Positions 14,635-24,777 of a stretch of DNA of 64,000 nt are shown here, one piece after another (the stretch's first letter is position 1; each line of letters opens with the position of its first letter). Origin of the DNA: an uncultured Thermoleophilia bacterium (lineage in GTDB: Bacteria; Actinomycetota; Thermoleophilia; UBA2241); contig CAVVTV010000025.1 of assembly GCA_963751215.1 (NCBI GenBank), forward strand, positions 130,665-194,664. The letters run 5' to 3'. A program made the position numbers and the translations under genes. A model generated the notes under the pieces. That model was given only the letters and a program-made list of their open reading frames with translations. It searched no databases and was not told the DNA's origin.

Positions 14635-15930
14635 CTAGGCCGGGCCGAGGTGCCTGCGGCGCAGCTCCTCCAGCTGCTTGGGGGAGAGAAACACGCAGTC
14701 ACCCCTGGCCGCCTCACCGGCGGCGACATCGTGGGCCAGCACCCGGCAACTGGGCGCGCCGCAGAGCCCGCAGTCCAGTCCCGGCAGGGTACCCGCGATG
14801 CGTTCCGCCTCCTTCACCCGCCGCACCCTCTCGCGCAGATCGCCCACCTTGGTGGTCGCGCGAGGCTCGAACGGACGCTCGGTGGAGTAGTCTTCTTGCG
14901 GGTAGCGACGCCACACCTCGGCCTCGGTCTCGAGGTCGGTCTCGGGGAGCTCCCTCACCAGGCTCTGCATCTTGGCCTGCGTCACGTAGAGGTTGTCGAC
15001 CGTAAGATTGCCGTTGGCGCAGCCGCCCCAGCAGGCGCTGCACTCCAGGAAGTCTATGTCTTTGAGCTTGCCCTTCTCGATGTCGTCGAAGACGCGCATC
15101 ACGTTGGGCAGCCCCGTCACCGACAGGTAGCGGTACCTGCTGAGCGTGCCGGCCAGCGGGCGTCGCGTAGACCAGCGCAGCATCCCCGCGGAACGCACGG
15201 GCGCCCAGGCGCAGTGAACGCCGGACTTCGCGACCCTACGCGCCCGGGCCAGCACCGTGTTGTACACCTGCGGAATGCCGATGGACCCGTCCAGGTAGCT
15301 CTTGCCACCTTCGGCCGGCTGCATGATGGAGACGGTCCGTGCCTGGCAGGGCGTGACGTAGATGGCGGCCACGTCTTCGGGCGCCACACCGCGCTCCAGC
15401 GCGAAGCGCCGCTTGACCTCGCGCCCGGCGATCTCGCGCGGAGGGTGCACGCGAATGAGCTGCTCCAGCATCCGCGGGTACGAGACCTGCATGAGCCGCA
15501 CCACCACGGGGCAGGTGATGGAGATGATGGGCCGCGGGCCACGCCAGGAGCCCACGAAATCGACGATCGCACGCGTCACGAGCTTCATCTCAACGCCGTA
15601 GTCCCACACGCTGTCGAAGCCCACGGCGAGCAGCCCCTCGGCGATGTGCTCAGGCCGTATCTCGCGCGGAAACTGGCCGAAGAGCACCGGCGAGGGCACC
15701 GCCACCTTGAGCGCGAAATGGTTGAACTCGTCCAGGGTCCGCGTGGTCGCCGTGATCGCCCCGCGCGAGCACGCGGTAAGGCACGAGCCGCAGTCGATGC
15801 ACAGCTCGCTCAGCACGCGCGCCTTGCCGTGCTTCACGCGAATCGCAAACGTGGGGCAGACCCGCATGCAAGCCAGGCAGCCGTTGCACACCGCGTCGGC
15901 TATGCGGAATCCATGCGTGTACTCAGCCAT
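14635..15930 (-). CDS. HydS-like putative sensory [FeFe]-hydrogenase homologue. It lacks a PAS domain and is the last gene of the redox operon.
   Basis: Two N-terminal ferredoxin-type motifs (CNGCLACMRVCP, CIDCGSCLTACS). The H-cluster-domain motifs are present in modified form: L1 ITCP has a single Cys where the proton-relay Cys of TSCCP is replaced, L2 is TPCQ, and L3 is ECSACWGGCANG. A C-terminal Cx2Cx4Cx16C motif (CGLCGAPSC-16-C) matches what is described for Thermotoga HydS. Confidence 0.75.
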   Translation of the reverse strand: MAEYTHGFRIADAVCNGCLACMRVCPTFAIRVKHGKARVLSELCIDCGSCLTACSRGAITATTRTLDEFNHFALKVAVPSPVLFGQFPREIRPEHIAEGLLAVGFDSVWDYGVEMKLVTRAIVDFVGSWRGPRPIISITCPVVVRLMQVSYPRMLEQLIRVHPPREIAGREVKRRFALERGVAPEDVAAIYVTPCQARTVSIMQPAEGGKSYLDGSIGIPQVYNTVLARARRVAKSGVHCAWAPVRSAGMLRWSTRRPLAGTLSRYRYLSVTGLPNVMRVFDDIEKGKLKDIDFLECSACWGGCANGNLTVDNLYVTQAKMQSLVRELPETDLETEAEVWRRYPQEDYSTERPFEPRATTKVGDLRERVRRVKEAERIAGTLPGLDCGLCGAPSCRVLAHDVAAGEAARGDCVFLSPKQLEELRRRHLGPA

Positions 15931-16363
15931 GCTCGTCCAGCTTGATCTTGCAGGTCACGACGGTGCCCTCACCTAGCTCTGAGCGGATACCGAACACGTC
16001 GGAGTTCTTCTGCACATTGGGCAGACCCATGCCGAAGCCGAAGCCCATCTCGCGCATCTCGTCGCTGGCGCTCGACCATCCCTCCTGCATGGCAAGCTCG
16101 AGGTCGGGGATGCCCGGGCCGTGGTCGGCCATCTCGATGCCGATGTCTTCGTCTGTGATCGCCAGGGTGAGCACCCCCTCGCGGGCGTACATCACCACGT
16201 TCATCTCGACCTCGAAGGCCACCACCACGGCGCGGCGGATGGTCTGCGGGTCGATCTCCAGGTCTTTGAGCAGCGTCTTGATCTCGGTCGACGTCTCGCC
16301 CGCCTTGTCGAAATCGAGGCCGTTCACCCGGTAGCAGCACGAGAGCAGCTCCTCGGCCATCAC
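15923..16363 (-). CDS. Histidine-kinase-like ATPase (anti-sigma-factor/RsbW-type HATPase_c) protein
   Basis: 146 aa with HGPGIPDLE...GFGFGMGLPNV G-box-like motifs. It shows ATGA-type overlaps with both neighbours. Confidence 0.8.
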   Translation of the reverse strand: MMAEELLSCCYRVNGLDFDKAGETSTEIKTLLKDLEIDPQTIRRAVVVAFEVEMNVVMYAREGVLTLAITDEDIGIEMADHGPGIPDLELAMQEGWSSASDEMREMGFGFGMGLPNVQKNSDVFGIRSELGEGTVVTCKIKLDEHG

Positions 16364-16701
16364 ATCGCCCCGTGCAGGCCGGCGACGTACAGGATGCCGC
16401 AGCTCTCGAACATGCCGAGGCAGGTCATGAGCACCGGGATGCCCTTCTCACGAGCGAGCTCTAGCACGCGCTCGGGCGGACGCTTGCCGCGCACGTACAC
16501 GATGGCGTGCACATCGGCCACCACGGCGGTGCGCACCGACTGGATGTTGGTGAGCCCGGTGAGCATCAAGGCGTGAGGCCGGTGAAAGGCGAGGATCTCG
16601 CTCATGCCGTCGGAGGCCACCACGGCCTCTATATCCACCTCGTGGTCGAGCGTCGTGAGCGGCTCGCAACACAGAGCCGCGGCGATCTCGTTCAGCCTCA
16701 T
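16360..16701 (-). CDS. DRTGG domain protein
   Basis: 113 aa with LMLTGLTNIQSVRTAVVADVHAIVYVRGK...GIPVLMT, typical of the DRTGG (CBS-associated) domain. Its start overlaps the NfnB-like stop (ATGA). Confidence 0.75.
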   Translation of the reverse strand: MRLNEIAAALCCEPLTTLDHEVDIEAVVASDGMSEILAFHRPHALMLTGLTNIQSVRTAVVADVHAIVYVRGKRPPERVLELAREKGIPVLMTCLGMFESCGILYVAGLHGAM

Positions 16702-18131
16702 GGCCGGCAGCCTCCTTCGCGATCAGGCACGCGCCTGCGCAGCGCCGCGTCGATCGACAGCGCCGCCCGGCGCCCGGCGCCCATGGCACTGATGACCGTG
16801 GCTGCGCCGGTAACCACGTCTCCGCCGGCCCAGATATGCTCGCGTGACGTACGCCCGGTCTCTTCGTCAGCCACAATGGTACCGCGCGGGCCCACCTCCA
16901 GGCCCGGGGTCGTCGCGGGAATCAGCGGGTTGGGGCTGTTGCCGATGGCGCACACCGAGGCGTCTACAGACATCATGAACTCGGAGCCCGCGATCTCTAT
17001 GGGCCGGCGGCGGCCGGAGGCATCGGGAGTACCCAGCTCCATGCGGCGGCACTCCATGGCGCGCAGCCAGCCCCGGTCGTCGCCGATGAGGCGCACCGGC
17101 AAGGTGAGGAAGTCGAAGATCACGCCCTCCTCCTCGGCGTTCTCCACCTCCTCGAGGCGCGCCGGAAGCTCGTCGCGGCTGCGCCGGTACACGATGTGTA
17201 CCTCCTCGGCGCCCAGACGCAGCGCGGTGCGGGCCGAGTCCATGGCCACGTTGCCGCCGCCGAACACGGCCACCTTCGCCGCCCGCTTGAGCGGCGTGTC
17301 CCAGGCGGGAAAGCGAAAGCCGCGCATGAGGTTGCAGCGCGTGAGGTACTCGTTCGCGGAGTACACGCCGTTCAGGTTCTCCCCCGGGATCTCGAGAAAC
17401 CACGGCAGGCCGGCGCCGGCGCCCACGAACGCCGCGTCGAACGATTCGAGCAACCGGTCGAGGGTGCGTGTCTTGCCGGCCACGAAGTCAAGGCGCAGCT
17501 CCACCCCCAGGCTGCGCACGTAGTCGATCTCGCGGCGCACGATGGCCTTTGGCAGGCGAAACTCCGGGATGCCGTAGGTGAGCACGCCTCCCGCCTCGTG
17601 CAGAGCCTCGAACACGGTCACCTGGTACCCCTGCCCGGCGAGGTCGGCGGCCACCGTAATGCCGGCCGGTCCCGAGCCGACCACGGCCACCCGGCGGCCG
17701 TTGGCGGGCGGCTGCGGGGGCGGCTGCGCCGCCCCCTCGGCCGCCTCCCAGTCGGCCAGGAAGCGTTCCAGACGGCCGATGGCGAGCGGCTCCCCCTTCT
17801 TGCCCAGCAAGCAGAGCTTCTCGCACTGCTCCTCCTGCGGACACACGCGGCCGCAGACCGCCGGCAGCGCGTTGGTCTCCTTGACCTTCTTGATGCCGGT
17901 CGCGAAGTCTCCCTCGGCGATGCAGGCGACGAAAGCCGAGATGTCGACGCCCACCGGGCAGCCCTGGCTGCAAGCGGGCTTCTTGCAGGCCAGGCAGCGC
18001 GCCGCCTCCTCCCGCGCGAGCTCGGGCGAGTAGCCCAGCGCCACCTCGTCGAAGTTGCGCACACGCGCGCCCGGCTCCTGCTTCGGCATGGGCCGTCTGG
18101 CCGTTCTGATTCTGCCGCCCACTCGCGTCAT
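16698..18131 (-). CDS. GltD/SudA/NfnB-like subunit: NAD(P)H-binding, FAD, two [4Fe-4S] clusters
   Basis: CLACKKPACSQGCPVGVD and CGRVCPQEEQCEKLC Fe-S motifs, and two GxGxxG folds (VAVVGSGPAGITVA, VAVFGGGNVAMDSA). Start chosen at M42 of the ORF, which sits 4 nt after the NfnA-like stop. Confidence 0.85.
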   Translation of the reverse strand: MTRVGGRIRTARRPMPKQEPGARVRNFDEVALGYSPELAREEAARCLACKKPACSQGCPVGVDISAFVACIAEGDFATGIKKVKETNALPAVCGRVCPQEEQCEKLCLLGKKGEPLAIGRLERFLADWEAAEGAAQPPPQPPANGRRVAVVGSGPAGITVAADLAGQGYQVTVFEALHEAGGVLTYGIPEFRLPKAIVRREIDYVRSLGVELRLDFVAGKTRTLDRLLESFDAAFVGAGAGLPWFLEIPGENLNGVYSANEYLTRCNLMRGFRFPAWDTPLKRAAKVAVFGGGNVAMDSARTALRLGAEEVHIVYRRSRDELPARLEEVENAEEEGVIFDFLTLPVRLIGDDRGWLRAMECRRMELGTPDASGRRRPIEIAGSEFMMSVDASVCAIGNSPNPLIPATTPGLEVGPRGTIVADEETGRTSREHIWAGGDVVTGAATVISAMGAGRRAALSIDAALRRRVPDREGGCRP

Positions 18132-18135
18132 CCTC

Positions 18136-18969
18136 TCAGAAGTGAGACGCGCACCCGCTGCGCCGAAGAGGTTCGACCTCCTCCGGATTGTAGGTCTCTC
18201 GCCGCGCCAGGAACTCTTCCCAGTCCACCTCGTGGCCGTTGAACTCGGGGCCATCGACGCAGGCGAACCTGGTCTTGCCGGCCACCGTCAGGCGGCACAC
18301 CCCGCACATGCCCGTGCCGTCGATCATGATTGGGTTCATGCTCACGATCGTCGTGATGCCCAGGGGCCGAGTCTGCTCGCAGACCTTCATCATCTGGAAG
18401 GTGCACCCATGGGCGACGATGCGCTCCGGGTGAAGGTCTTCGAGCGCCAGGATCTCGGCCAGGCGCGTCACGTGCCCTTTGTAGCCCCGGCTGCCGTCGC
18501 GGGTGACCGTGATCACGCGCTCGGCGACACCGCGCAGCCGGTCTTCCCAGTACAAGAGATAGGCGCTACGCGCCTCCACGAGCACCACCACGCGGTTGCC
18601 GGCCGCCGCCATGGCGGCGGCGACGGGCTGGATACTGCCGATCCCGTAGCAGCCGCCGATGAGCAGCACCGTGCCGAAGTGCTCCACCACGGTCGCATTG
18701 CCCAGGGGACCGGCATACGACGGGATCTCGTCGCCGGCGTGCAGGCGCGCAAGCCGACCCGTGGAGGCGCCGACCTGCACGAAGATGGAGGTAACGGTTC
18801 CGGCGGCGGCGTCCCAGTCGGCCAGGGTGAGCGGAATGCGCTCGCCGCCCTCTCCCGGTCGCAGGATGATGAAGTTGCCGGGCCGCGCTGACTCGGCCAC
18901 CTCGGGCGCGTCCACGGTGAGCAGGTGCACGTTGGGCACGATCATGCGGCGTTCAACGACCCGGACCAT
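18136..18969 (-). CDS. SudB/NfnA/PyrK-like subunit: FAD plus C-terminal [2Fe-2S]
   Basis: Ferredoxin-NADP-reductase-like fold (MVRVVERRMIVPNVHLLTVDAPE...) ending in GTGMCGVCRLTVAGKTRFACVDGPEF, a Cys4 [2Fe-2S] motif. An alternative ATG lies at 18945. Confidence 0.8.
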   Translation of the reverse strand: MVRVVERRMIVPNVHLLTVDAPEVAESARPGNFIILRPGEGGERIPLTLADWDAAAGTVTSIFVQVGASTGRLARLHAGDEIPSYAGPLGNATVVEHFGTVLLIGGCYGIGSIQPVAAAMAAAGNRVVVLVEARSAYLLYWEDRLRGVAERVITVTRDGSRGYKGHVTRLAEILALEDLHPERIVAHGCTFQMMKVCEQTRPLGITTIVSMNPIMIDGTGMCGVCRLTVAGKTRFACVDGPEFNGHEVDWEEFLARRETYNPEEVEPLRRSGCASHF

Positions 18970-21496
18970 GCTCCCTCCCCGAGTGAGTGGAGGATCGCCG
19001 GCGCCGGCCGGCGCCGGTGGCCCGCGCGCGCTCGCCGGCCCGGGCGTGCTCGCCGGCGCGCAGACGCACCTTCTGCGGTCCCGCCGGGCCCGGCCACCAA
19101 CGCGGCAGCACCATATACACAACGCCCCGCGGACAGTCGCGATCGGGGCGCGCAACGAGCACGAGATCGCGCTCCGCCAAGCCGACCGTCACAAGACCGT
19201 CCGGCGCCGCGCCGAGGCGCGCCAGGTCGTCTGGGTGAATGCGCAGCCCCTCCTCGAGGCGCAGCTCTCCGAGGCCCTCGACAACGCCGGCCAGATCGAC
19301 ACCGCGGTGAGCGAACGCCGTGCGCTCGGCCACCAGAACGTAGCGCCGCCCGCGGCGCGCGGTGTCTTGCGCCGGCTCCGCCGCCCTGCCGGCCGGCGCG
19401 CTCGCCACGGCCGGCGCGGTCATCCGGGCCGCTTCGCCGGCCGCCCCCAGCGGCACCATGCGGCGCGGCGCGCGGTCGCGCTCGGCGGGAAAGGCCGGCA
19501 CCTCGGCGCGCATGGCCTCTCGCACGGCGCCGGCGTCGCGGTACTGCAAAGCGGGGTGTCCCAAGCACGCCGCGAGGCTCGAGAAGATCCACCAGTCGGG
19601 CTGCGCAGCCTTGCTCGCGCCGCACGCGCGCAGCCGCTCGAGGCCGCACACCTCCTGCACCCGGCCCTCGAGGTTGGTCAGAGTGCCGTCGGCCTCCGCA
19701 AACGAGGCCGCGGGCAGAAACGCATCCACGGCAAAGGGTGGCAGGTACATGTCTTGGGCGATCACGTAGTCACAGTCGGGGCGTGTCGCGAACGGCGCTG
19801 CCCCGACGAGGTACAGCACCCTCGGGCAACGGCCCGCGCGGAGCTGCGCCAGGTCGAAGCCCCGGTTCGCCACGCGCGAGCCCGCCCCTGCTCGCGGGCT
19901 CGGCGCCGCCCGCGGACCGGGCCACACCTCACTCAGCCCGCCGAGCTCCAGCACGCCACGCGTATTGGCGCCATTCACCAGCGGCAAGACGCTCGTGCCC
20001 TCACGCGTGGCCACGCTCTCCAGCTTGGCCACCAGCTCCGCCGCCCCCGCGCCGGCGAAGACCCGCGGCCCCACCACCACAGCCAGCGGGGCGCCCTCCA
20101 CCGTACCCAGGGTCTCCGTCAGGGCGATGGCCTCGCTACCCGCCGCAGGACGCAGCCAGCGGTCGGCCGCCCGGGCAAGGTTCGACTCGCGAGCATCTAC
20201 CACCACCAGGCGCGCGCCATCACGCAGCGCGCGCCTGACCTGCACCCCGACCACCGAGAACGAGAACCGCGAGTCGAGCCCCGCGACCACCACCGTGGCC
20301 GCCCGACGAACCGCCAGTATGGACACGGGCAGCGCGAACAGGCGCGACCACAGATGCACGCCACCGGCAAGGTCGTCGCGGGCGGTGGAGTCGACGCCGC
20401 CGCGCAGACCTGCTCGCACCAGTCGTTGGGCCGCATACACCGCCTCGTTCGTGAGATCGCCGGAGACCAGCATCAGCAGCTCCTCCGGGGCCACGTCGGC
20501 CAGCCTCGCGCTCACCTCCGCGAGGACCTCGTCCCAGCTTGTGACGCGCAAGCTGGCGCCACGACGCAGCATGGGCTCACGGGCGCGGGAATGATGGTGG
20601 GTCACTTCCGGCAGGCAGAAGCGCCCTCGCACGCAGAGCTGGCCGTCGTTCAGGGCCGCGTCGCGCGCGCCGCTCACCGACGAAAGACGGCCGTCTCGGT
20701 GAGCCAGCCGCACACGGCAGCCGAGGCTGCAGAACGGGCAGGTGGAAATCTCCTGGCCGTCGGGCGTGCCGTCCCACTTGGACACCTTGTCGGCGAGCGC
20801 CCCCGTGGGGCACACCGAGACGCAGGCCCCGCAGAACTCGCAGCCGGCCTGCGCGTGCGAATCACCGAAGGCCGGCCCCACCAGCGTCTTGGGGCCGCGG
20901 TACTTGAAAGCGAGCACCGCGGCCCCCCGCACCTCCTGGCACATGCGCACGCAGCGACCGCACAGGATGCAAAGGTTGTAGTCGCGGTCGAAGAACGGGT
21001 CGTCGTGCTCCACGCTCAGCCCCAGGTAGGAGATGGGGTAGGGGATGCCGGCCACGCCGACGTGGTCCGCGACCACCTGCAACTCGCAGTCGCCGTCTTT
21101 GGGACAGTTGCCGCACCCGGTAGAGACTCCGGCCTTGCGGATCGTCTTCTGGGTGCGCCGGCACTCCTCCCTCTCGTCGCAGACCAGACAACTGGAGGGG
21201 TGCTTGGAGAGGATGAGCTGAAGGATCTCGCGGCGCATCTCGCGCAGGGTCACCGTGTCGGTCGTCACTCGCATGCCCTCGGCAGCCAGCGTGCTGCAGG
21301 CCAGCGGGTAGCCGCGCAGGCCCGAGATCTCGACCATGCACAGGCGGCAGGCGCCGAACGGTGAGAGCTCCTCGTGAGAGCAAAGGGACGGCACATATGC
21401 TCCGGCGAGCTCCGCGGCGCGCAACACGGTGACTCCCTCCGGCACCGAGACGAGGCGATGATCGACCGTCAGATGCAGACGGGTCTCAGAGCCCAT
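18953..21496 (-). CDS. NuoG/FdhA-like Fe-S subunit with a molybdopterin-oxidoreductase (MopB) domain that appears non-catalytic
   Basis: Start at ORF residue 190 (MGSETRLHLTVDHRLVSVPEGVTVL). It has an N-terminal 2Fe-2S ferredoxin fold, a His/Cys cluster, two 4Fe-4S motifs, a MopB Cys motif (STCPFCSLGCRV...C) and a C-terminal molybdopterin-dinucleotide-binding barrel (IHPDDLARLGAAPDGLVTV). At the position aligned by eye to the FDH active site (CCARVUHGP) it reads STARDDLAGGV, so there is no Cys/Sec and no His. There is no in-frame TGA. Confidence 0.8.
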   Translation of the reverse strand: MGSETRLHLTVDHRLVSVPEGVTVLRAAELAGAYVPSLCSHEELSPFGACRLCMVEISGLRGYPLACSTLAAEGMRVTTDTVTLREMRREILQLILSKHPSSCLVCDEREECRRTQKTIRKAGVSTGCGNCPKDGDCELQVVADHVGVAGIPYPISYLGLSVEHDDPFFDRDYNLCILCGRCVRMCQEVRGAAVLAFKYRGPKTLVGPAFGDSHAQAGCEFCGACVSVCPTGALADKVSKWDGTPDGQEISTCPFCSLGCRVRLAHRDGRLSSVSGARDAALNDGQLCVRGRFCLPEVTHHHSRAREPMLRRGASLRVTSWDEVLAEVSARLADVAPEELLMLVSGDLTNEAVYAAQRLVRAGLRGGVDSTARDDLAGGVHLWSRLFALPVSILAVRRAATVVVAGLDSRFSFSVVGVQVRRALRDGARLVVVDARESNLARAADRWLRPAAGSEAIALTETLGTVEGAPLAVVVGPRVFAGAGAAELVAKLESVATREGTSVLPLVNGANTRGVLELGGLSEVWPGPRAAPSPRAGAGSRVANRGFDLAQLRAGRCPRVLYLVGAAPFATRPDCDYVIAQDMYLPPFAVDAFLPAASFAEADGTLTNLEGRVQEVCGLERLRACGASKAAQPDWWIFSSLAACLGHPALQYRDAGAVREAMRAEVPAFPAERDRAPRRMVPLGAAGEAARMTAPAVASAPAGRAAEPAQDTARRGRRYVLVAERTAFAHRGVDLAGVVEGLGELRLEEGLRIHPDDLARLGAAPDGLVTVGLAERDLVLVARPDRDCPRGVVYMVLPRWWPGPAGPQKVRLRAGEHARAGERARATGAGRRRRSSTHSGREHGPGR

Positions 21497-23396
21497 CAGA
21501 CGCTCCCGACTCAATGCGGATGGCGTCGCCGGCGACGGCGTCGAAACGGCAGATCTCGTAGCAGGAGCGGCACTTGATGCACTTCTCCGGGTCGAGATTG
21601 TGAACCTCGGCGCGTGGTCCAGTGATGGCTCCGGTAGGGCACACCTGCACGCAGCGCTGGCAGCCGGTGCACCGCTCAGGCATGATCCGGTACACGACGA
21701 GATCACGGCAGACCGCCGCCCGGCAGCGTCTCTCGACGATGTGCTCCACGAACTCGGCGCGGAAGTACTTGAGCGACGAGAGCACCGGGTTGGGCGCCGT
21801 CTGCCCGAGGCCGCAGAGGGAGCTGGCCTTGACCACACCGGCGAGCTTCTCGAGACGCGCGAGGTCGGTGAGCTGCGCCTCGCCGGAGCAGATCGCCGTG
21901 AGAATCTCTGCGAGGTGCCCGGTGCCGATGCGACACGGCACGCACTTGCCACATGATTCATCTTGGGTGAAGCCGAGGAAGTAGCGCGCCATGTCGACCA
22001 TGCACGTGTCGCGGTCGAGCACGATGAGCCCGCCCGAGCCCATGATGGAGCCGGCCGCGGCAAGGCTCTCGTAGTCGATGGGGATGTCGAGAAACTCCTC
22101 CCCGAGGCAGCCCCCCGACGGGCCCCCGGTTTGCACGGCCTTGAAGTCTTTGGCGAGCCCGCCGCCGATATCGTAGACCACCTGGCGCAGCGTCATGCCG
22201 AACGGGATCTCTATGAGTCCCGTGCGGCGCACCTTGCCGACCAGGCTGAAGGTCTTCGTGCCCTTCGACGTCTCGGTGCCGAAGCTCGCATACCACTCGG
22301 GCCCGCGGGCGAGGATCGCCGGCAGGGTCGCGAGCGTTTCCACGTTGTCGATAATCGTGGGCTCGCCGTGCAGACCTGCGACGGCGGGAAACGGGGGCCG
22401 CGTGCGCGGCATCCCGCGACGACCCTCGAGGCTCGCGATGAGAGCCGTCTCTTCACCGCAGACAAAGGCTCCCGCCCCTTCCTGGAGGCTGATGTCGAAC
22501 GAGAAGTCGCTGCCCAGGATCCTGTCGCCGAGCAGGCCGAGCTTGCGCATGGCGGCCAGCGCCGAGCGCAGGCGCTGGATCGCCAGCGGGTACTCGGCCC
22601 TGATGTAGATATGACCGTGTGCGGCGCCGATGGCGTAGCCGGCGATCAGCATGCCCTCGAGCACCTCGTGCGGGTCGCCCTCGATGAGGGAGCGGTTCAT
22701 GAAGGCGCCGGGGTCGCCCTCGTCGGCGTTGCAGATGAGGTGGCGCGCGTCGCTCTCGGTCTGCCGGCAGAAGGTCCATTTCTGCCAGGTAGGAAAGCCC
22801 GCCCCTCCACGGCCGCGCAACCCCGCGCGCCGAACGGCGTCGATCACGTCCTGCCACGGCATGTCGAGGCAGTGCGCGAACGCCGCATACCCGCCCCGGG
22901 CCAGATAGTGATCGATCTGCTCGGGATCGATGATGCCGCAGTTGCGCAGCACGATGCGCTTCTGGCGACTGAGCATCGGGTGGTCCGCGAGACTCGGTAC
23001 GCCGGCGCCATCGTACCCGCCGGCGCCCTCGTACTCGCCATCGCCAAGGTACCCCACGAGATGCCGCCGAGGCACCTCACCGCCGCGCAGAGCGTCGAGC
23101 GTGTCGGCGGCCAGGTCGCCCGTCATGTTGGAGTAGCTCAGACGAGGCCTGCCGGGGAGCTGCACGTCAAGGAGCGGCTCCAGGTAGCAGAGCCCCAGGC
23201 AGCCGACCGCCACGATCTCGGCGTCGACCTGCCGTTCCTCTAGATACCGGCGCACCCCGGCGAGCACCTCCAGGGCGCCCGCCGCCAGCCCGCACGACCC
23301 CATGCCGAGATAGACGACCGGGCGCCCGCTGGACGTGAGAGCCCGCCAGCGCGCTCCGGCTCTACGGCGGCGACGGTCAAGGGCGGGGGCGAGCAT
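21486..23396 (-). CDS. NuoF/HydB-like flavoprotein subunit: NAD(H)-binding, FMN, Fe-S; N-terminal thioredoxin-like 2Fe-2S and C-terminal 2x[4Fe-4S] extensions
   Basis: GAGAFVCGEETALIASLEGRRG is the FMN/NADH site. An N-terminal NuoE-like domain is present (GMGSCGLAAG...VGCLGLCYLEP). The C-terminal Cys motifs are CTGCQRCVQVCP and CIKCRSCYEICR. This architecture is as in HydB/HndC-type subunits. Confidence 0.9.
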   Translation of the reverse strand: MLAPALDRRRRRAGARWRALTSSGRPVVYLGMGSCGLAAGALEVLAGVRRYLEERQVDAEIVAVGCLGLCYLEPLLDVQLPGRPRLSYSNMTGDLAADTLDALRGGEVPRRHLVGYLGDGEYEGAGGYDGAGVPSLADHPMLSRQKRIVLRNCGIIDPEQIDHYLARGGYAAFAHCLDMPWQDVIDAVRRAGLRGRGGAGFPTWQKWTFCRQTESDARHLICNADEGDPGAFMNRSLIEGDPHEVLEGMLIAGYAIGAAHGHIYIRAEYPLAIQRLRSALAAMRKLGLLGDRILGSDFSFDISLQEGAGAFVCGEETALIASLEGRRGMPRTRPPFPAVAGLHGEPTIIDNVETLATLPAILARGPEWYASFGTETSKGTKTFSLVGKVRRTGLIEIPFGMTLRQVVYDIGGGLAKDFKAVQTGGPSGGCLGEEFLDIPIDYESLAAAGSIMGSGGLIVLDRDTCMVDMARYFLGFTQDESCGKCVPCRIGTGHLAEILTAICSGEAQLTDLARLEKLAGVVKASSLCGLGQTAPNPVLSSLKYFRAEFVEHIVERRCRAAVCRDLVVYRIMPERCTGCQRCVQVCPTGAITGPRAEVHNLDPEKCIKCRSCYEICRFDAVAGDAIRIESGASDGL

Positions 23397-23880
23397 CTAG
23401 CACCCCCTGGAGCTTGAGCACACTCATCTGCCCATAGATGATGTCGTCCAGCGTGATCACCGGGGCCAGGGCGCAGCACCCGAGGCAGGCCACGCGCTCC
23501 AGGTCGAACTCCCCGTCGGACGTGGTCTCGCCGGCCTCCACACCCAGCCTGCGCGCGGCCGTGTCGAGCATCTGCACACCCCCCTTGACGTGGCAGGCTG
23601 TGCCGAGGCAAATACGCAGGCGATGACGGCCGGGCGGGCAGAAGCGAAACTGCGAGTAGAAGGTGGCGACGCCGAAGACCTCGCCCTCCGACATCCGCAA
23701 CCAGCGCGCGATGCGCCGCACCGCGTCCGGCGAGAGATACCCGAGAGCCGCCTGCGCCTTCTGCAGCGCCGGCACGAGATCCGCGCGATGGCCGGCGAAC
23801 CCGCGCATGATGCCCGGCCAGGGATCGCCGTGTGACGACCCGCCCCGGGCGCCGGCCGGCTCTCGAGCCGACGCCTCCAT
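23377..23880 (-). CDS. NuoE/HydC-like thioredoxin-like [2Fe-2S] subunit
   Basis: CLGTACHVKGG...CLGCCALAPV is the Cys4 NuoE motif. The gene overlaps the nuoF-like start by 20 nt. Confidence 0.85.
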   Translation of the reverse strand: MEASAREPAGARGGSSHGDPWPGIMRGFAGHRADLVPALQKAQAALGYLSPDAVRRIARWLRMSEGEVFGVATFYSQFRFCPPGRHRLRICLGTACHVKGGVQMLDTAARRLGVEAGETTSDGEFDLERVACLGCCALAPVITLDDIIYGQMSVLKLQGVLDARPRP

Positions 23881-23889
23881 GGCAACCTC

Positions 23890-24228
23890 CTACCTCAGGC
23901 CGAGCTCGACCAGGCGCACGGCGTACGACCAGGTGTCGTCCATGGTTGTGAAGAGCGCGATGCCCACTCTGTCGGCGAGGCTCACGACATCGTCGGCCGG
24001 ACGCTTGTCGTGGGCGAACACGACCATGGCGGCATCGACCACGTTGGCCGCCGCGATGAGGTTCTTATGCGTCTGTAGAGTCACCAGTAGGCTGCCGCTC
24101 TGAGCACCCGTGATGATGTCCGACGCCATGTCGGACACATACACCCCCGAGACGTCGGCATCTTCCTGCACATTGAGCGCTTCGAGCCCTGTTCTCTCGA
24201 CGATCTCGGAGATTCTCACGGTGCCCAC
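23890..24228 (-). CDS. DRTGG domain protein (second copy)
   Basis: 112 aa with LLVTLQTHKNLIAAANVVDAAMVVFAHDKRPADDVVSLADRVGIALFTT, similar to the 16360-16701 product. Confidence 0.7.
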   Translation of the reverse strand: MGTVRISEIVERTGLEALNVQEDADVSGVYVSDMASDIITGAQSGSLLVTLQTHKNLIAAANVVDAAMVVFAHDKRPADDVVSLADRVGIALFTTMDDTWSYAVRLVELGLR

Positions 24229-24258: not shown

Positions 24259-24777
24259 TTACAGCTCTGTGAGCCCAGCGTCGGCGATGACGACGCCCGC
24301 GCAGCAGTCGATGTCGCTGCACATGCTGCACGGCACTACCACGATCTTCTTGTGCGCCGAGCGCAGGCGCTGGTTGAAGTACTCGCCCAGCGCCGCGACC
24401 CCCTCGTCGCTCACACAGTGACCCGCGGAGTGGCTAGAGTCGGCACAGAGTGCCACGTAGACCGAGGTGCCCTTGCCCATCTCGAGAGCCATGCAGCCGA
24501 CTTGGCACTCGGGGTCTTCGCAGGTCGACAGCATGAGACCCGTCATGTCGCTGAGGTCGACCACCGTGCCGCAGATCTCGCAGCGCAGGCCGAAGGCGAC
24601 CGCCTGAGAGCTTGAGAGGTACCTCCACATGTGCTCACCCTGACGGTACTCGTCCATGGGCGCGGCCGGTTCCGTGGAGAAGAACGAGCCGCGGGCGCCG
24701 CAGTGGTAGCAGCCTTCGACGACCAGATACCCGCTGCGGACGTTGGTCATCGACCAGTGATGGGGGCAGGTGCTCAT
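24259..24777 (-). CDS. Cys-rich protein of unknown function (14 Cys in 172 aa), first gene of the redox operon
   Basis: The ATG at 24777 is preceded by GGAGGA. It carries CxxC pairs (CYHC, CEIC), CEDPECQVGC, and CSMCSDIDCC. No family was recognised. Confidence 0.5.
   Translation of the reverse strand: MSTCPHHWSMTNVRSGYLVVEGCYHCGARGSFFSTEPAAPMDEYRQGEHMWRYLSSSQAVAFGLRCEICGTVVDLSDMTGLMLSTCEDPECQVGCMALEMGKGTSVYVALCADSSHSAGHCVSDEGVAALGEYFNQRLRSAHKKIVVVPCSMCSDIDCCAGVVIADAGLTEL

Follow-up and report, generated by a model that had tools for sequence, protein, structure and literature searches.

Enzymes of the Bfu family combine a conserved BfuBC core with a variable subunit, BfuA, through which electrons arrive from a third-substrate module (Schut et al. 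2022, PMC9304861). BfuB is defined by FMN-binding, SLBB, NADH_4Fe-4S and C-terminal 4Fe-4S ferredoxin domains, BfuC is NuoE-like, and BfuA has at a minimum one 2Fe-2S and one 4Fe-4S ferredoxin-type domain; the third-substrate module is a domain of BfuA in Type 1 enzymes, and is made of extra subunits in Types 2 and 3 (PMC9304861). In the Nfn-Bfu or Stn enzymes of solved structure the A subunit has an inserted NfnL-like domain and a formate dehydrogenase (FDH)-like domain, and the latter, in StnC/NfnA, is described as 'catalytically inactive', with an 'incomplete' pterin site that shows no density and a dead-end branch of clusters, and is required for assembly (PMC10482914, PMC11829005, PMC12018979). 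Here we describe a gene, which we call X, in a 64,000-nucleotide stretch of DNA (the window) from an uncultured Thermoleophilia bacterium (assembly GCA_963751215.1, contig CAVVTV010000025.1, positions 130,665 to 194,664). X (minus strand, 18953–21496; positions are those of the window) encodes an 847-residue iron–sulfur (Fe-S) protein that Pfam, NCBIfam, HMMER and Foldseek comparisons identify as BfuA/NuoG/FdsA-like, with a MopB-fold body that appears to be cofactor-less. We think it reasonably probable, judging from sequence, that X is the BfuA of a soluble five-subunit 'split' Nfn-Bfu, in which separate NfnS and NfnL proteins would provide the NADP(H) site and the net reaction would be that of Nfn.

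Active-site and cluster-binding residues of X

An earlier reading of this DNA, made from the sequence alone, had set the segment …GVD-STARD-D-LAGGV… of X by eye against the FDH active-site motif, and had concluded that the molybdenum (Mo)-ligand cysteine or selenocysteine (Sec) and the active-site His are missing. HMMER alignments to FdsA, FdhF and F420-FDH agree on this register: the X segment '..VDSTARDDLAGG..' (from G367-V-D-S-T-A-R-D-D-L-A-G-G) lies opposite '..TDTCARVCHSP..' in R. capsulatus FdsA, '..VDCCARVxHGP..' in E. coli FdhF and '..VDHCARLxHSA..' in F420-FDH. The ligand position corresponds to Asp375 (with a 3-residue gap in the FdhF alignment) and the His that follows the ligand in FDH to Leu376, both in the stretch DSTARDDLAGG (residues 369–379; 20360–20392). 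No alignment (to FdsA, FdhF, F420-FDH, HDCR-FdhF or ForCE) placed a Cys at the Mo-ligand position elsewhere in X, each giving the same register or a gap; FdsA and FdhF were two of the comparisons that the sequence-only reading had proposed, and the third, Nqo3, was compared by Foldseek fold match. FdhF Arg333, in P-V-R-G-Q-N-N-V-Q-G, is replaced by Val507 in the equivalent P-L-V-N-G-A-N-T-R-G of X (residues 505–514; 19955–19984), and FdhF Lys44, which follows the fourth [4Fe-4S] Cys (C-x-K-G), by Arg290 (C-V-R-G).

The same pattern extends to the relatives of X. Among the 120 closest database homologues (50–67% identical), the ligand column contains S in 40, Y in 18, D in 12, A in 12, R in 8 and C in 8 sequences, and 115 have Leu in the 'His' column, while the flanks (D369-S-T-A-R … L-P-G-G … W383) are nearly invariant. 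The closest relatives in GTDB (62–67% identity) have Y, R or S opposite Asp375, which is therefore not a conserved ligand. We considered Asp375 as an Mo ligand like that of NarG and rejected it, because the column is not conserved even in these nearest relatives.

As a yardstick of decay, we used the columns that are invariant across 11 relatives whose FDH site is intact. The N-terminal Fe-S half of X keeps 42 of its 43 such columns, and the MopB half keeps 52 of 132, with 23 columns deleted. The deletions in X relative to the FDH-intact proteins comprise a 52-residue segment, the motif 'SCGLHWP' and the C-terminal 'VLTNAALDPVCKIPEF' segment, which we take to be the conserved pterin-contacting end of domain IV. 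By contrast, all 51 of 51 degenerate homologues retain the four cysteines of the MopB [4Fe-4S] cluster. The decay in X is thus selective, with the pterin and active-site parts lost and every cluster strictly retained. X falls short on all the sequence criteria that we tested for an FDH alpha subunit carrying molybdenum/tungsten bis(pyranopterin guanine dinucleotide) (ligand plus His, the Arg, the Lys, and the PF01568 and family scores), and we infer from these residues that the Mo/W-pterin cofactor is absent from X. More than 100 columns are invariant among 118 sequences of the X family; the gene is therefore not undergoing pseudogenisation, and the scaffold is under selection.

The Fe-S chain of X begins with a [2Fe-2S] ferredoxin domain (residues 5–81; 21254–21484) whose ligands C39, C50, C53 and C67 are invariant, and continues through a His-ligated cluster motif (residues 99–140; 21077–21202), two ferredoxin-type [4Fe-4S] motifs (residues 168–234; 20795–20995) with C176/179/182/186 and C219/222/225/229, and the MopB N-terminal [4Fe-4S] site (residues 251–296; 20609–20746) with C253, C256, C260 and C288, next to which Arg290 stands in place of the FDH Lys. 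Pfam finds, in order, Fer2_4 (residues 5–81), two stretches of NADH-G_4Fe-4S_3 from residue 88, Fer4_Nqo3 (168–234), Molybdop_Fe4S4 (251–296) and Molybdopterin (304–642, 74 bits); Molydop_binding (PF01568) scores 17.5 bits on residues 747–800, under its cut-off of 26.8. Neither whole-protein NCBIfam model reaches its cut-off: NuoG (TIGR01973) scores 239.8 bits against 470, and Fdh-alpha (TIGR01591) 161 bits against 666. The same Pfam/NCBIfam scan found no Pyr_redox or Fer4_20 domain in X, nfnL being a separate gene.

In the His-ligated motif of X, H99-x3-C103-x2-C106-x5-C112-x15-C128-x2-C131-x5-C137-ELQ, the CxxCx5C loop is duplicated in tandem, and all seven ligand-type residues are invariant in the 118 sequences. 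The duplication occurs in X and most of its relatives; a few (L029, L031 and L038) have a single canonical His-ligated motif, and solved homologues align to one copy or the other, never to both. It adds three invariant cysteines (C112, C128 and C131), which lie in a low-confidence loop of the structural model and might provide a further site for a metal or a cluster.

An AlphaFold2 model of X, built on the 118 sequences, has a predicted local distance difference test score (pLDDT) of 79.8, mostly >90 in the MopB part, and a predicted TM-score (pTM) of 0.83. Its Foldseek TMq values are alike, 0.60–0.64, for the alpha subunits of NAD-dependent FDHs (9ktl_A, 6tg9_A, 7vw6_A) and for bacterial NuoG/Nqo3 (8e9g_G, 4hea_3). 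Because the model matches full-length FdsA and NuoG/Nqo3 equally well, the four-domain MopB fold and C-terminal barrel are retained in the predicted structure, as the sequence-only reading had held; the barrel (MopB domain IV fold) occupies residues 715–815 (19052–19354) and lacks the 'VLTNAALDPVCKIPEF'-type motif. X thus appears to show the combination that marks NuoG/Nqo3, a cofactor-less MopB fold joined to an N-terminal Fe-S chain.

The X reading frame starts at an ATG at 21496, which is preceded by a GGGAG Shine-Dalgarno sequence and overlaps the bfuB stop by 11 nt, and ends with a stop codon at 18953–18955. It contains no internal stop, hence no in-frame TGA, as had been noted earlier. 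A longer open reading frame (ORF) of 1036 aa, starting at a TTG and reaching to 22063, was rejected: its first 189 codons run out of frame within bfuB, and homologues begin at the ATG at 21496. The G+C content of the window is about 69% and there are long spurious ORFs on either strand. No homology supports a 901-aa ORF antisense to X (18659–21364, plus strand) or the other long antisense ORFs, which are to be expected at about 70% G+C.

The C-terminal tail of X (residues ~816–847; 18956–19051) is basic and predicted to be disordered, and its length and sequence vary within the family. It had been described as an Arg-rich tail of 45 residues that overlaps the next gene. The basic tail is real, but the overlap with nfnS is only 17 nt and not 45 codons. 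The last codons of X (…S-G-R-E-H-G-P-G-R) contain the Shine-Dalgarno sequence of nfnS, GGGAGGGAG, together with the first 17 nt of that gene, and because they do so, 'GGG(H/R)GPGR' endings recur in X relatives. In two lineages X is naturally fused to NfnS (P0049, 1131 aa and 59% identical to X; P0082, 1153 aa and 53%), and in both proteins the basic tail links X to a full-length NfnS.

Partner genes and distribution of the operon

X is encoded in a cluster of ten genes, all on the minus strand. At its centre the junctions of bfuC-bfuB-X-nfnS-nfnL are overlaps of 20, 11 and 17 nt and then a 4-nt gap between the nfnS stop and the nfnL ATG. BfuC (23377–23880) is a NuoE-like [2Fe-2S] subunit of thioredoxin fold (PF01257). 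BfuB (21486–23396) is a 636-aa NuoF-like FMN/NAD(H) subunit with an N-terminal thioredoxin-like domain, an FMN/NAD(H) domain and two C-terminal [4Fe-4S] clusters; PF01512, PF10589 and two Fer4 domains are clear, and SLBB is weak (20.7 bits). The best full-length PDB matches of BfuB are C. saccharolyticus NfnB (711 bits), T. sibiricus NfnB (706), S. ovata StnB (698) and A. mobile NiFe-HydB (695), as against 344–409 bits for FdsB and 382 for Nqo1, and BfuB scores 463 on the NCBIfam NuoF model, whose cut-off is 559. The sequence-only reading had described a soluble NuoEFG-like module. There is a module of that kind, but the NuoEF-like partners are, by these scores, a Bfu-type bifurcating core (HydBC/NfnBC-like) and not of complex-I type. 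X for its part has the domains expected of a Bfu A subunit (Fer2_4 with Fer4_Nqo3/Fer4_7), and is co-encoded with a BfuB and a NuoE-like BfuC.

Directly downstream of X lie genes for NfnS (18136–18969; SudB-like, with FAD and [2Fe-2S]), which starts 17 nt inside the end of X, and NfnL (16698–18131; SudA/GltD-like, with FAD, two [4Fe-4S] clusters and an NADPH site). They had been called SudAB-like proteins coupled to X; the pair is present, but it scores as canonical NfnS and NfnL, above the NCBIfam cut-offs (327 bits on NF004862, cut-off 220; 566 bits on TIGR01316, cut-off 472). NfnL matches T. maritima NfnB (4YLF) with 554 bits, and the NfnL-like domains inside NfnA/StnC with 281–334 bits; NfnS matches P. 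furiosus NfnI-S with 255 bits. Alignments to 4YLF and 5JCA show the Fe-S motifs and cluster ligands kept.

To see how widely this arrangement is conserved, we scanned GTDB with one genome per species, which gave at least 593 X relatives, and analysed the best 80 loci. In 71 of these a near-full-length X is accompanied by at least 1 kb of downstream sequence, and in 55 of the 71 nfnS is directly downstream of X, with a median distance of 0 nt from the X stop to the nfnS start (20 nt or less in 50 of the 55). Most loci have nfnL after nfnS and bfuC-bfuB before X, and a complete Phycisphaerales genome has the same ten-gene order. By record title, the carriers include Thermoleophilia/Actinomycetes, Planctomycetota, Aminicenantes, Zixibacteria, Bacteroidota, Cloacimonadota, Anaerolineae, Dehalococcoidia, Syntrophorhabdus, Desulfocapsaceae, WOR-3, TA06, Coatesbacteria and Stahlbacteria, and among archaea Thermoplasmatota, Thorarchaeota and Methanotrichaceae; the nearest named relatives of X are from metagenome-assembled genomes (MAGs) of Thermoleophilia/Actinomycetes. 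Across loci, identity to the X of the window correlates with identity to the NfnS, NfnL and BfuB of the window (rho 0.59–0.63), which is compatible with inheritance as a unit, though organismal phylogeny alone could give the same correlation.

The FDH site is intact in 11 of the 80 loci, where the X homologue has D-H-C-A-R-L-(Cys or TGA)-H and R-G-Q-N-N-V-Q-G, and these 11 alone keep the latter motif unaltered. Degenerate X genes have an adjacent nfnS in 49 cases and none in 11; for FDH-intact ones the numbers are 6 and 5. The six loci where an intact X (Sec or Cys) is followed by nfnS (L031, L036, L038, L043, L059 and L072) come from MAGs of Chloroflexi and Methanotrichaceae; the five from Chloroflexi also have nfnL after nfnS, and the best nfnL match of L072 is upstream of X on the opposite strand. 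Their gene content suggests uncharacterised, formate-linked Bfu-NfnSL complexes. A neighbour-joining tree of 75 X homologues, which is crude and midpoint-rooted and gives no basis for counting loss events, has the FDH-intact sequences as one clade amid many degenerate ones. A separate clade in Dehalococcoidia (L065, L066, L070, L071, L073–L075, L077 and L078) has a degenerate X of about 945 aa without nfnSL; at L070, the one locus of this clade that we examined, an FNR-like gene (FAD_binding_6 and NAD_binding_1) is located 85 nt downstream of X.

The remaining genes of the cluster flank this core. Upstream of bfuC there is a DRTGG-domain protein (23890–24228) and, at the head of the cluster, a Cys-rich 172-aa protein (24259–24777) that starts MSTCPHHW, is rich in Cys and His, and has CxxC pairs at 23/26 and 66/69. 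The latter matches no Pfam or NCBIfam family; its AlphaFold model is confident (pLDDT 85), yet has no significant fold match in the PDB. We found 261 homologues, all hypothetical proteins, and the gene heads the cluster in 15 of the 80 loci, across phyla. Downstream of nfnL are a second DRTGG-domain protein (16360–16701), an HATPase_c (anti-sigma/kinase-like) protein (15923–16363), and a sensor-like, 431-aa homologue of the [FeFe]-hydrogenase H-domain (14635–15930) with two [4Fe-4S] clusters and a C-terminal PF04060 Fe-S domain. The 431-aa protein (Fe_hyd_lg_C) has four cysteines at the H-cluster-ligand positions of L1–L3, and Thr at the proton-relay position. Its place beside kinase-like and DRTGG proteins suggests that it may be a redox or H2 sensor; together they look like a regulatory set of sensory-hydrogenase type attached to a complex without a hydrogenase subunit.

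A proposed five-subunit complex and its alternatives

The sequence-only reading had cast X as a non-catalytic structural or electron-conduit subunit, as in NuoG. That proposal is supported: all four FDH catalytic residues are lost, the ligand column varies throughout the family, the MopB half has decayed against a retained Fe-S half, and the synteny is conserved and fusions occur, all of which argues for X being a scaffold and conduit. Since a BfuABC lacking a third-substrate site could run no favourable reaction alone, X-BfuBC would need a partner, and NfnSL is the candidate because it is the sole redox partner that is consistently encoded alongside.

We infer a mechanism in which the five proteins would assemble into one complex, with the electron route and reaction as follows. 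The N-terminal half of X would be a wire of one [2Fe-2S] cluster, the His-ligated site, two ferredoxin-type [4Fe-4S] clusters and the MopB-type [4Fe-4S] cluster, and its C-terminal 600 residues, an ex-FDH body minus the Mo/W-pterin site, would now serve as scaffold and docking platform. BfuB (with FMN, the NAD(H) site and the C-terminal ferredoxin-reducing clusters) and BfuC would be the bifurcating core, NfnS and NfnL the third-substrate site for NADP(H), and X would connect NfnSL to BfuBC. Electrons may pass between NfnSL and X at the MopB [4Fe-4S] cluster, which is present in every homologue, or at the duplicated Cys loop close to the [2Fe-2S] domain. Overall, the complex would most likely carry out 2 NADPH + NAD+ + 2 Fd(ox) ⇌ 2 NADP+ + NADH + 2 Fd(red), where Fd is ferredoxin.

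Several points weigh against this proposal. NfnS and NfnL resemble stand-alone, self-sufficient NfnSL (from T. maritima and P. furiosus) as much as they resemble each other across loci, and no extension for docking is obvious in them; they may thus make up an enzyme of their own that is only co-transcribed with X. If the FAD of NfnL still bifurcates and NfnS binds NAD, the complex would have two NAD(H) sites and two ferredoxin branches, the benefit of which is not obvious, and by a rough calculation a simple tandem scheme looks thermodynamically wasteful. The 11 degenerate X homologues without an adjacent nfnS also have to be accounted for, and motifs resembling pterin contacts are still conserved in X (for example 'LPAASFAEAEGTLTNIEGRVQ'), so that a structural pterin may be present.

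The alternative that survives best is that the operon encodes two enzymes, with NfnSL a stand-alone transhydrogenase, X-BfuBC working with some other third partner, perhaps one encoded elsewhere, and co-transcription reflecting shared redox balancing. It would explain why NfnL and NfnS pass canonical NCBIfam cut-offs with all cluster ligands kept and no extra domains, why nfnS is missing beside some degenerate X genes, and why an FNR-like gene takes its place after X in one Dehalococcoidia locus. We nevertheless consider it unlikely, because the gap between X and nfnS is close to 0 nt in 50 of 55 loci from distant phyla, X and NfnS have been fused twice independently, NfnS and NfnL identity follows X identity, and without a catalytic third site a BfuABC could not, on thermodynamic grounds, run any reaction by itself.

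A second alternative takes H2 as the third substrate, with the 431-aa hydrogenase-like protein feeding X in a Type-2/3 Bfu hydrogenase. This protein does have Fe_hyd_lg_C, two [4Fe-4S] clusters and the four H-cluster-binding cysteines, and its gene is near the cluster in roughly 20 loci. That is far fewer loci than have nfnSL, and the gene is sometimes on the other side or strand; in addition, Thr replaces the proton-relay Cys, regulatory-type HATPase_c and DRTGG proteins flank it, and its L2 and L3 motifs are altered in what we take to be the manner of putative sensory (group C) hydrogenases. Together these make a hydrogenase role improbable.

Still less credible is the idea that X binds Mo/W-pterin, or pterin alone, and catalyses through a non-canonical ligand such as an Asp, as in NarG. 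The four-domain fold and barrel are intact and modelled with high confidence, this particular sequence has Asp at the ligand position, and several MopB motifs are still conserved, but the family ligand column is a mixture of S, Y, D, A, R and C, with Y, R or S in relatives 62–67% identical to X. The His, the Arg and the Lys are each gone, 80 of the 132 FDH-invariant MopB columns are altered or deleted (including the C-terminal pterin-binding-type motif), PF01568 scores under threshold, and solved homologues of similar decay contain no pterin (PMC11829005).

Finally, we dismiss as scarcely tenable a NuoEFG NADH-input module of respiratory complex I encoded away from its membrane subunits: NuoG is the top NCBIfam name for X and the folds of mycobacterial NuoG and Thermus Nqo3 match as well as FdsA does, but the NuoG (240 vs 470) and NuoF (463 vs 559) cut-offs are missed, the terminal domains of BfuB are those specific to Bfu and its matches to bifurcating B subunits stand some 300 bits above those to Nqo1/NuoF, and the conserved neighbours are nfnSL rather than nuo genes.

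Returning to the split Nfn-Bfu, a bolder version of it, which we offer only as a tentative speculation, would be a five-subunit supercomplex with two different bifurcation sites (the canonical FAD of NfnL, and the FMN/Fe-S 'flavobicluster' of BfuBC) wired together by a pterin-less FDH body, possibly via an extra metal site in the duplicated CxxCx5C loop. Such a complex might be the free-standing precursor of NfnABC/Stn, and its FDH-intact relatives in Chloroflexi and Methanotrichaceae might be redox hubs linked to formate, NADP, NAD and ferredoxin. Earlier proposals, not demonstrated, also combine two bifurcating modules: Bam-Bfu with HdrA, and HdrA-NfnB fusions in ANME-1.

Comparison with known systems

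Relatives of X are labelled 'formate dehydrogenase (NADP+) alpha subunit' or 'YjgC' by JGI, and 'molybdopterin-dependent oxidoreductase' by NCBI. Taken at face value, the FDH labels imply a formate metabolism that X cannot support. MopB-fold subunits without Mo are already known (NuoG, StnC/NfnA and NiFe-HydA), and the residue-level loss in X is ordinary in this respect. In the Bfu classification and its supplement, the Nfn/Stn structure papers, a survey of bifurcating enzymes, and full-text literature that leaves most subscription journals uncovered, we found neither a BfuABC+NfnSL type nor any account of NfnSL being encoded beside a BfuA-type subunit or fused to one.

NfnSL and Bfu are regarded as unrelated answers to one transhydrogenase problem. 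The operon occurs in many anaerobic phyla, more than a dozen altogether, and in some 55 species-level genomes at least. It offers a natural test of how an autonomous bifurcating flavoenzyme came to be taken up as a module, to be fused and 'de-bifurcated' later on in Stn/NfnABC. With the same synteny around intact Sec/Cys sites, there is a graded series from catalytic FDH to degenerate scaffold to fused NfnA, which provides material on how a molybdoenzyme changes into a structural subunit, the same transition that lies behind NuoG of complex I.

The best match of X in both sequence and fold is FdsA of FdsABG (R. capsulatus 6TG9), which has the same order of Fe-S domains; unlike FdsA, X has no Cys/Sec, His, Arg, Lys or pterin-binding-type motifs, and FdsB for its part lacks the Bfu-specific domains. 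NuoG/Nqo3 is like X in being a cofactor-less, MopB-fold Fe-S wire and scaffold, and its fold match equals that of FdsA, but X scores below the NuoG equivalog cut-off, has a Bfu-type B partner and NfnSL, and would be soluble. The downstream pair is like NfnSL (NfnAB, 'SudAB'; T. maritima 4YLF, P. furiosus 5JCA), which in its canonical form is a stand-alone heterodimer. Geobacter SfrAB and Moorella NADP-FDH FdhAB also join an FDH-alpha-like subunit to a GltD-like NADPH subunit, and SfrA is not known to have an Mo site; these are two-subunit enzymes, with no known NuoEF-like subunits or NfnS.

Within the Bfu family, the A. mobile Type-3 enzyme NiFe-HydABCSL (7T2R) resembles the window in having BfuABC with two extra electron-delivering subunits, and NiFe-HydA resembles X in its A1–A5-type clusters and vestigial MopB-like C-terminal domain. 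However, its extra pair is a NiFe hydrogenase, unrelated to NfnSL, and HydA has only 692 aa and no barrel. The Type-1 enzymes NfnABC/StnABC (S. ovata 8OH5, C. saccharolyticus 9BOV, T. sibiricus 9N5U) share with the window a BfuB/BfuC core, an inactive NuoG/FDH-like body in the A subunit, and an NfnL-type FAD/NADPH module as third-substrate site. In these enzymes the NfnL-like domain lies inside the A subunit behind the [2Fe-2S] domain, there is no NfnS, and the FAD is no longer bifurcating, whereas in the window NfnL and NfnS are separate and full-length, and NfnL is closer to that of bifurcating NfnSL. The insertion in StnC follows residue ~101, right behind the [2Fe-2S] domain, and it is near this position that X has its duplicated Cys loop. 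On the evidence of gene order and sequence, the split bfuCBA-nfnSL arrangement seems to represent a new form of Nfn-Bfu transhydrogenase.

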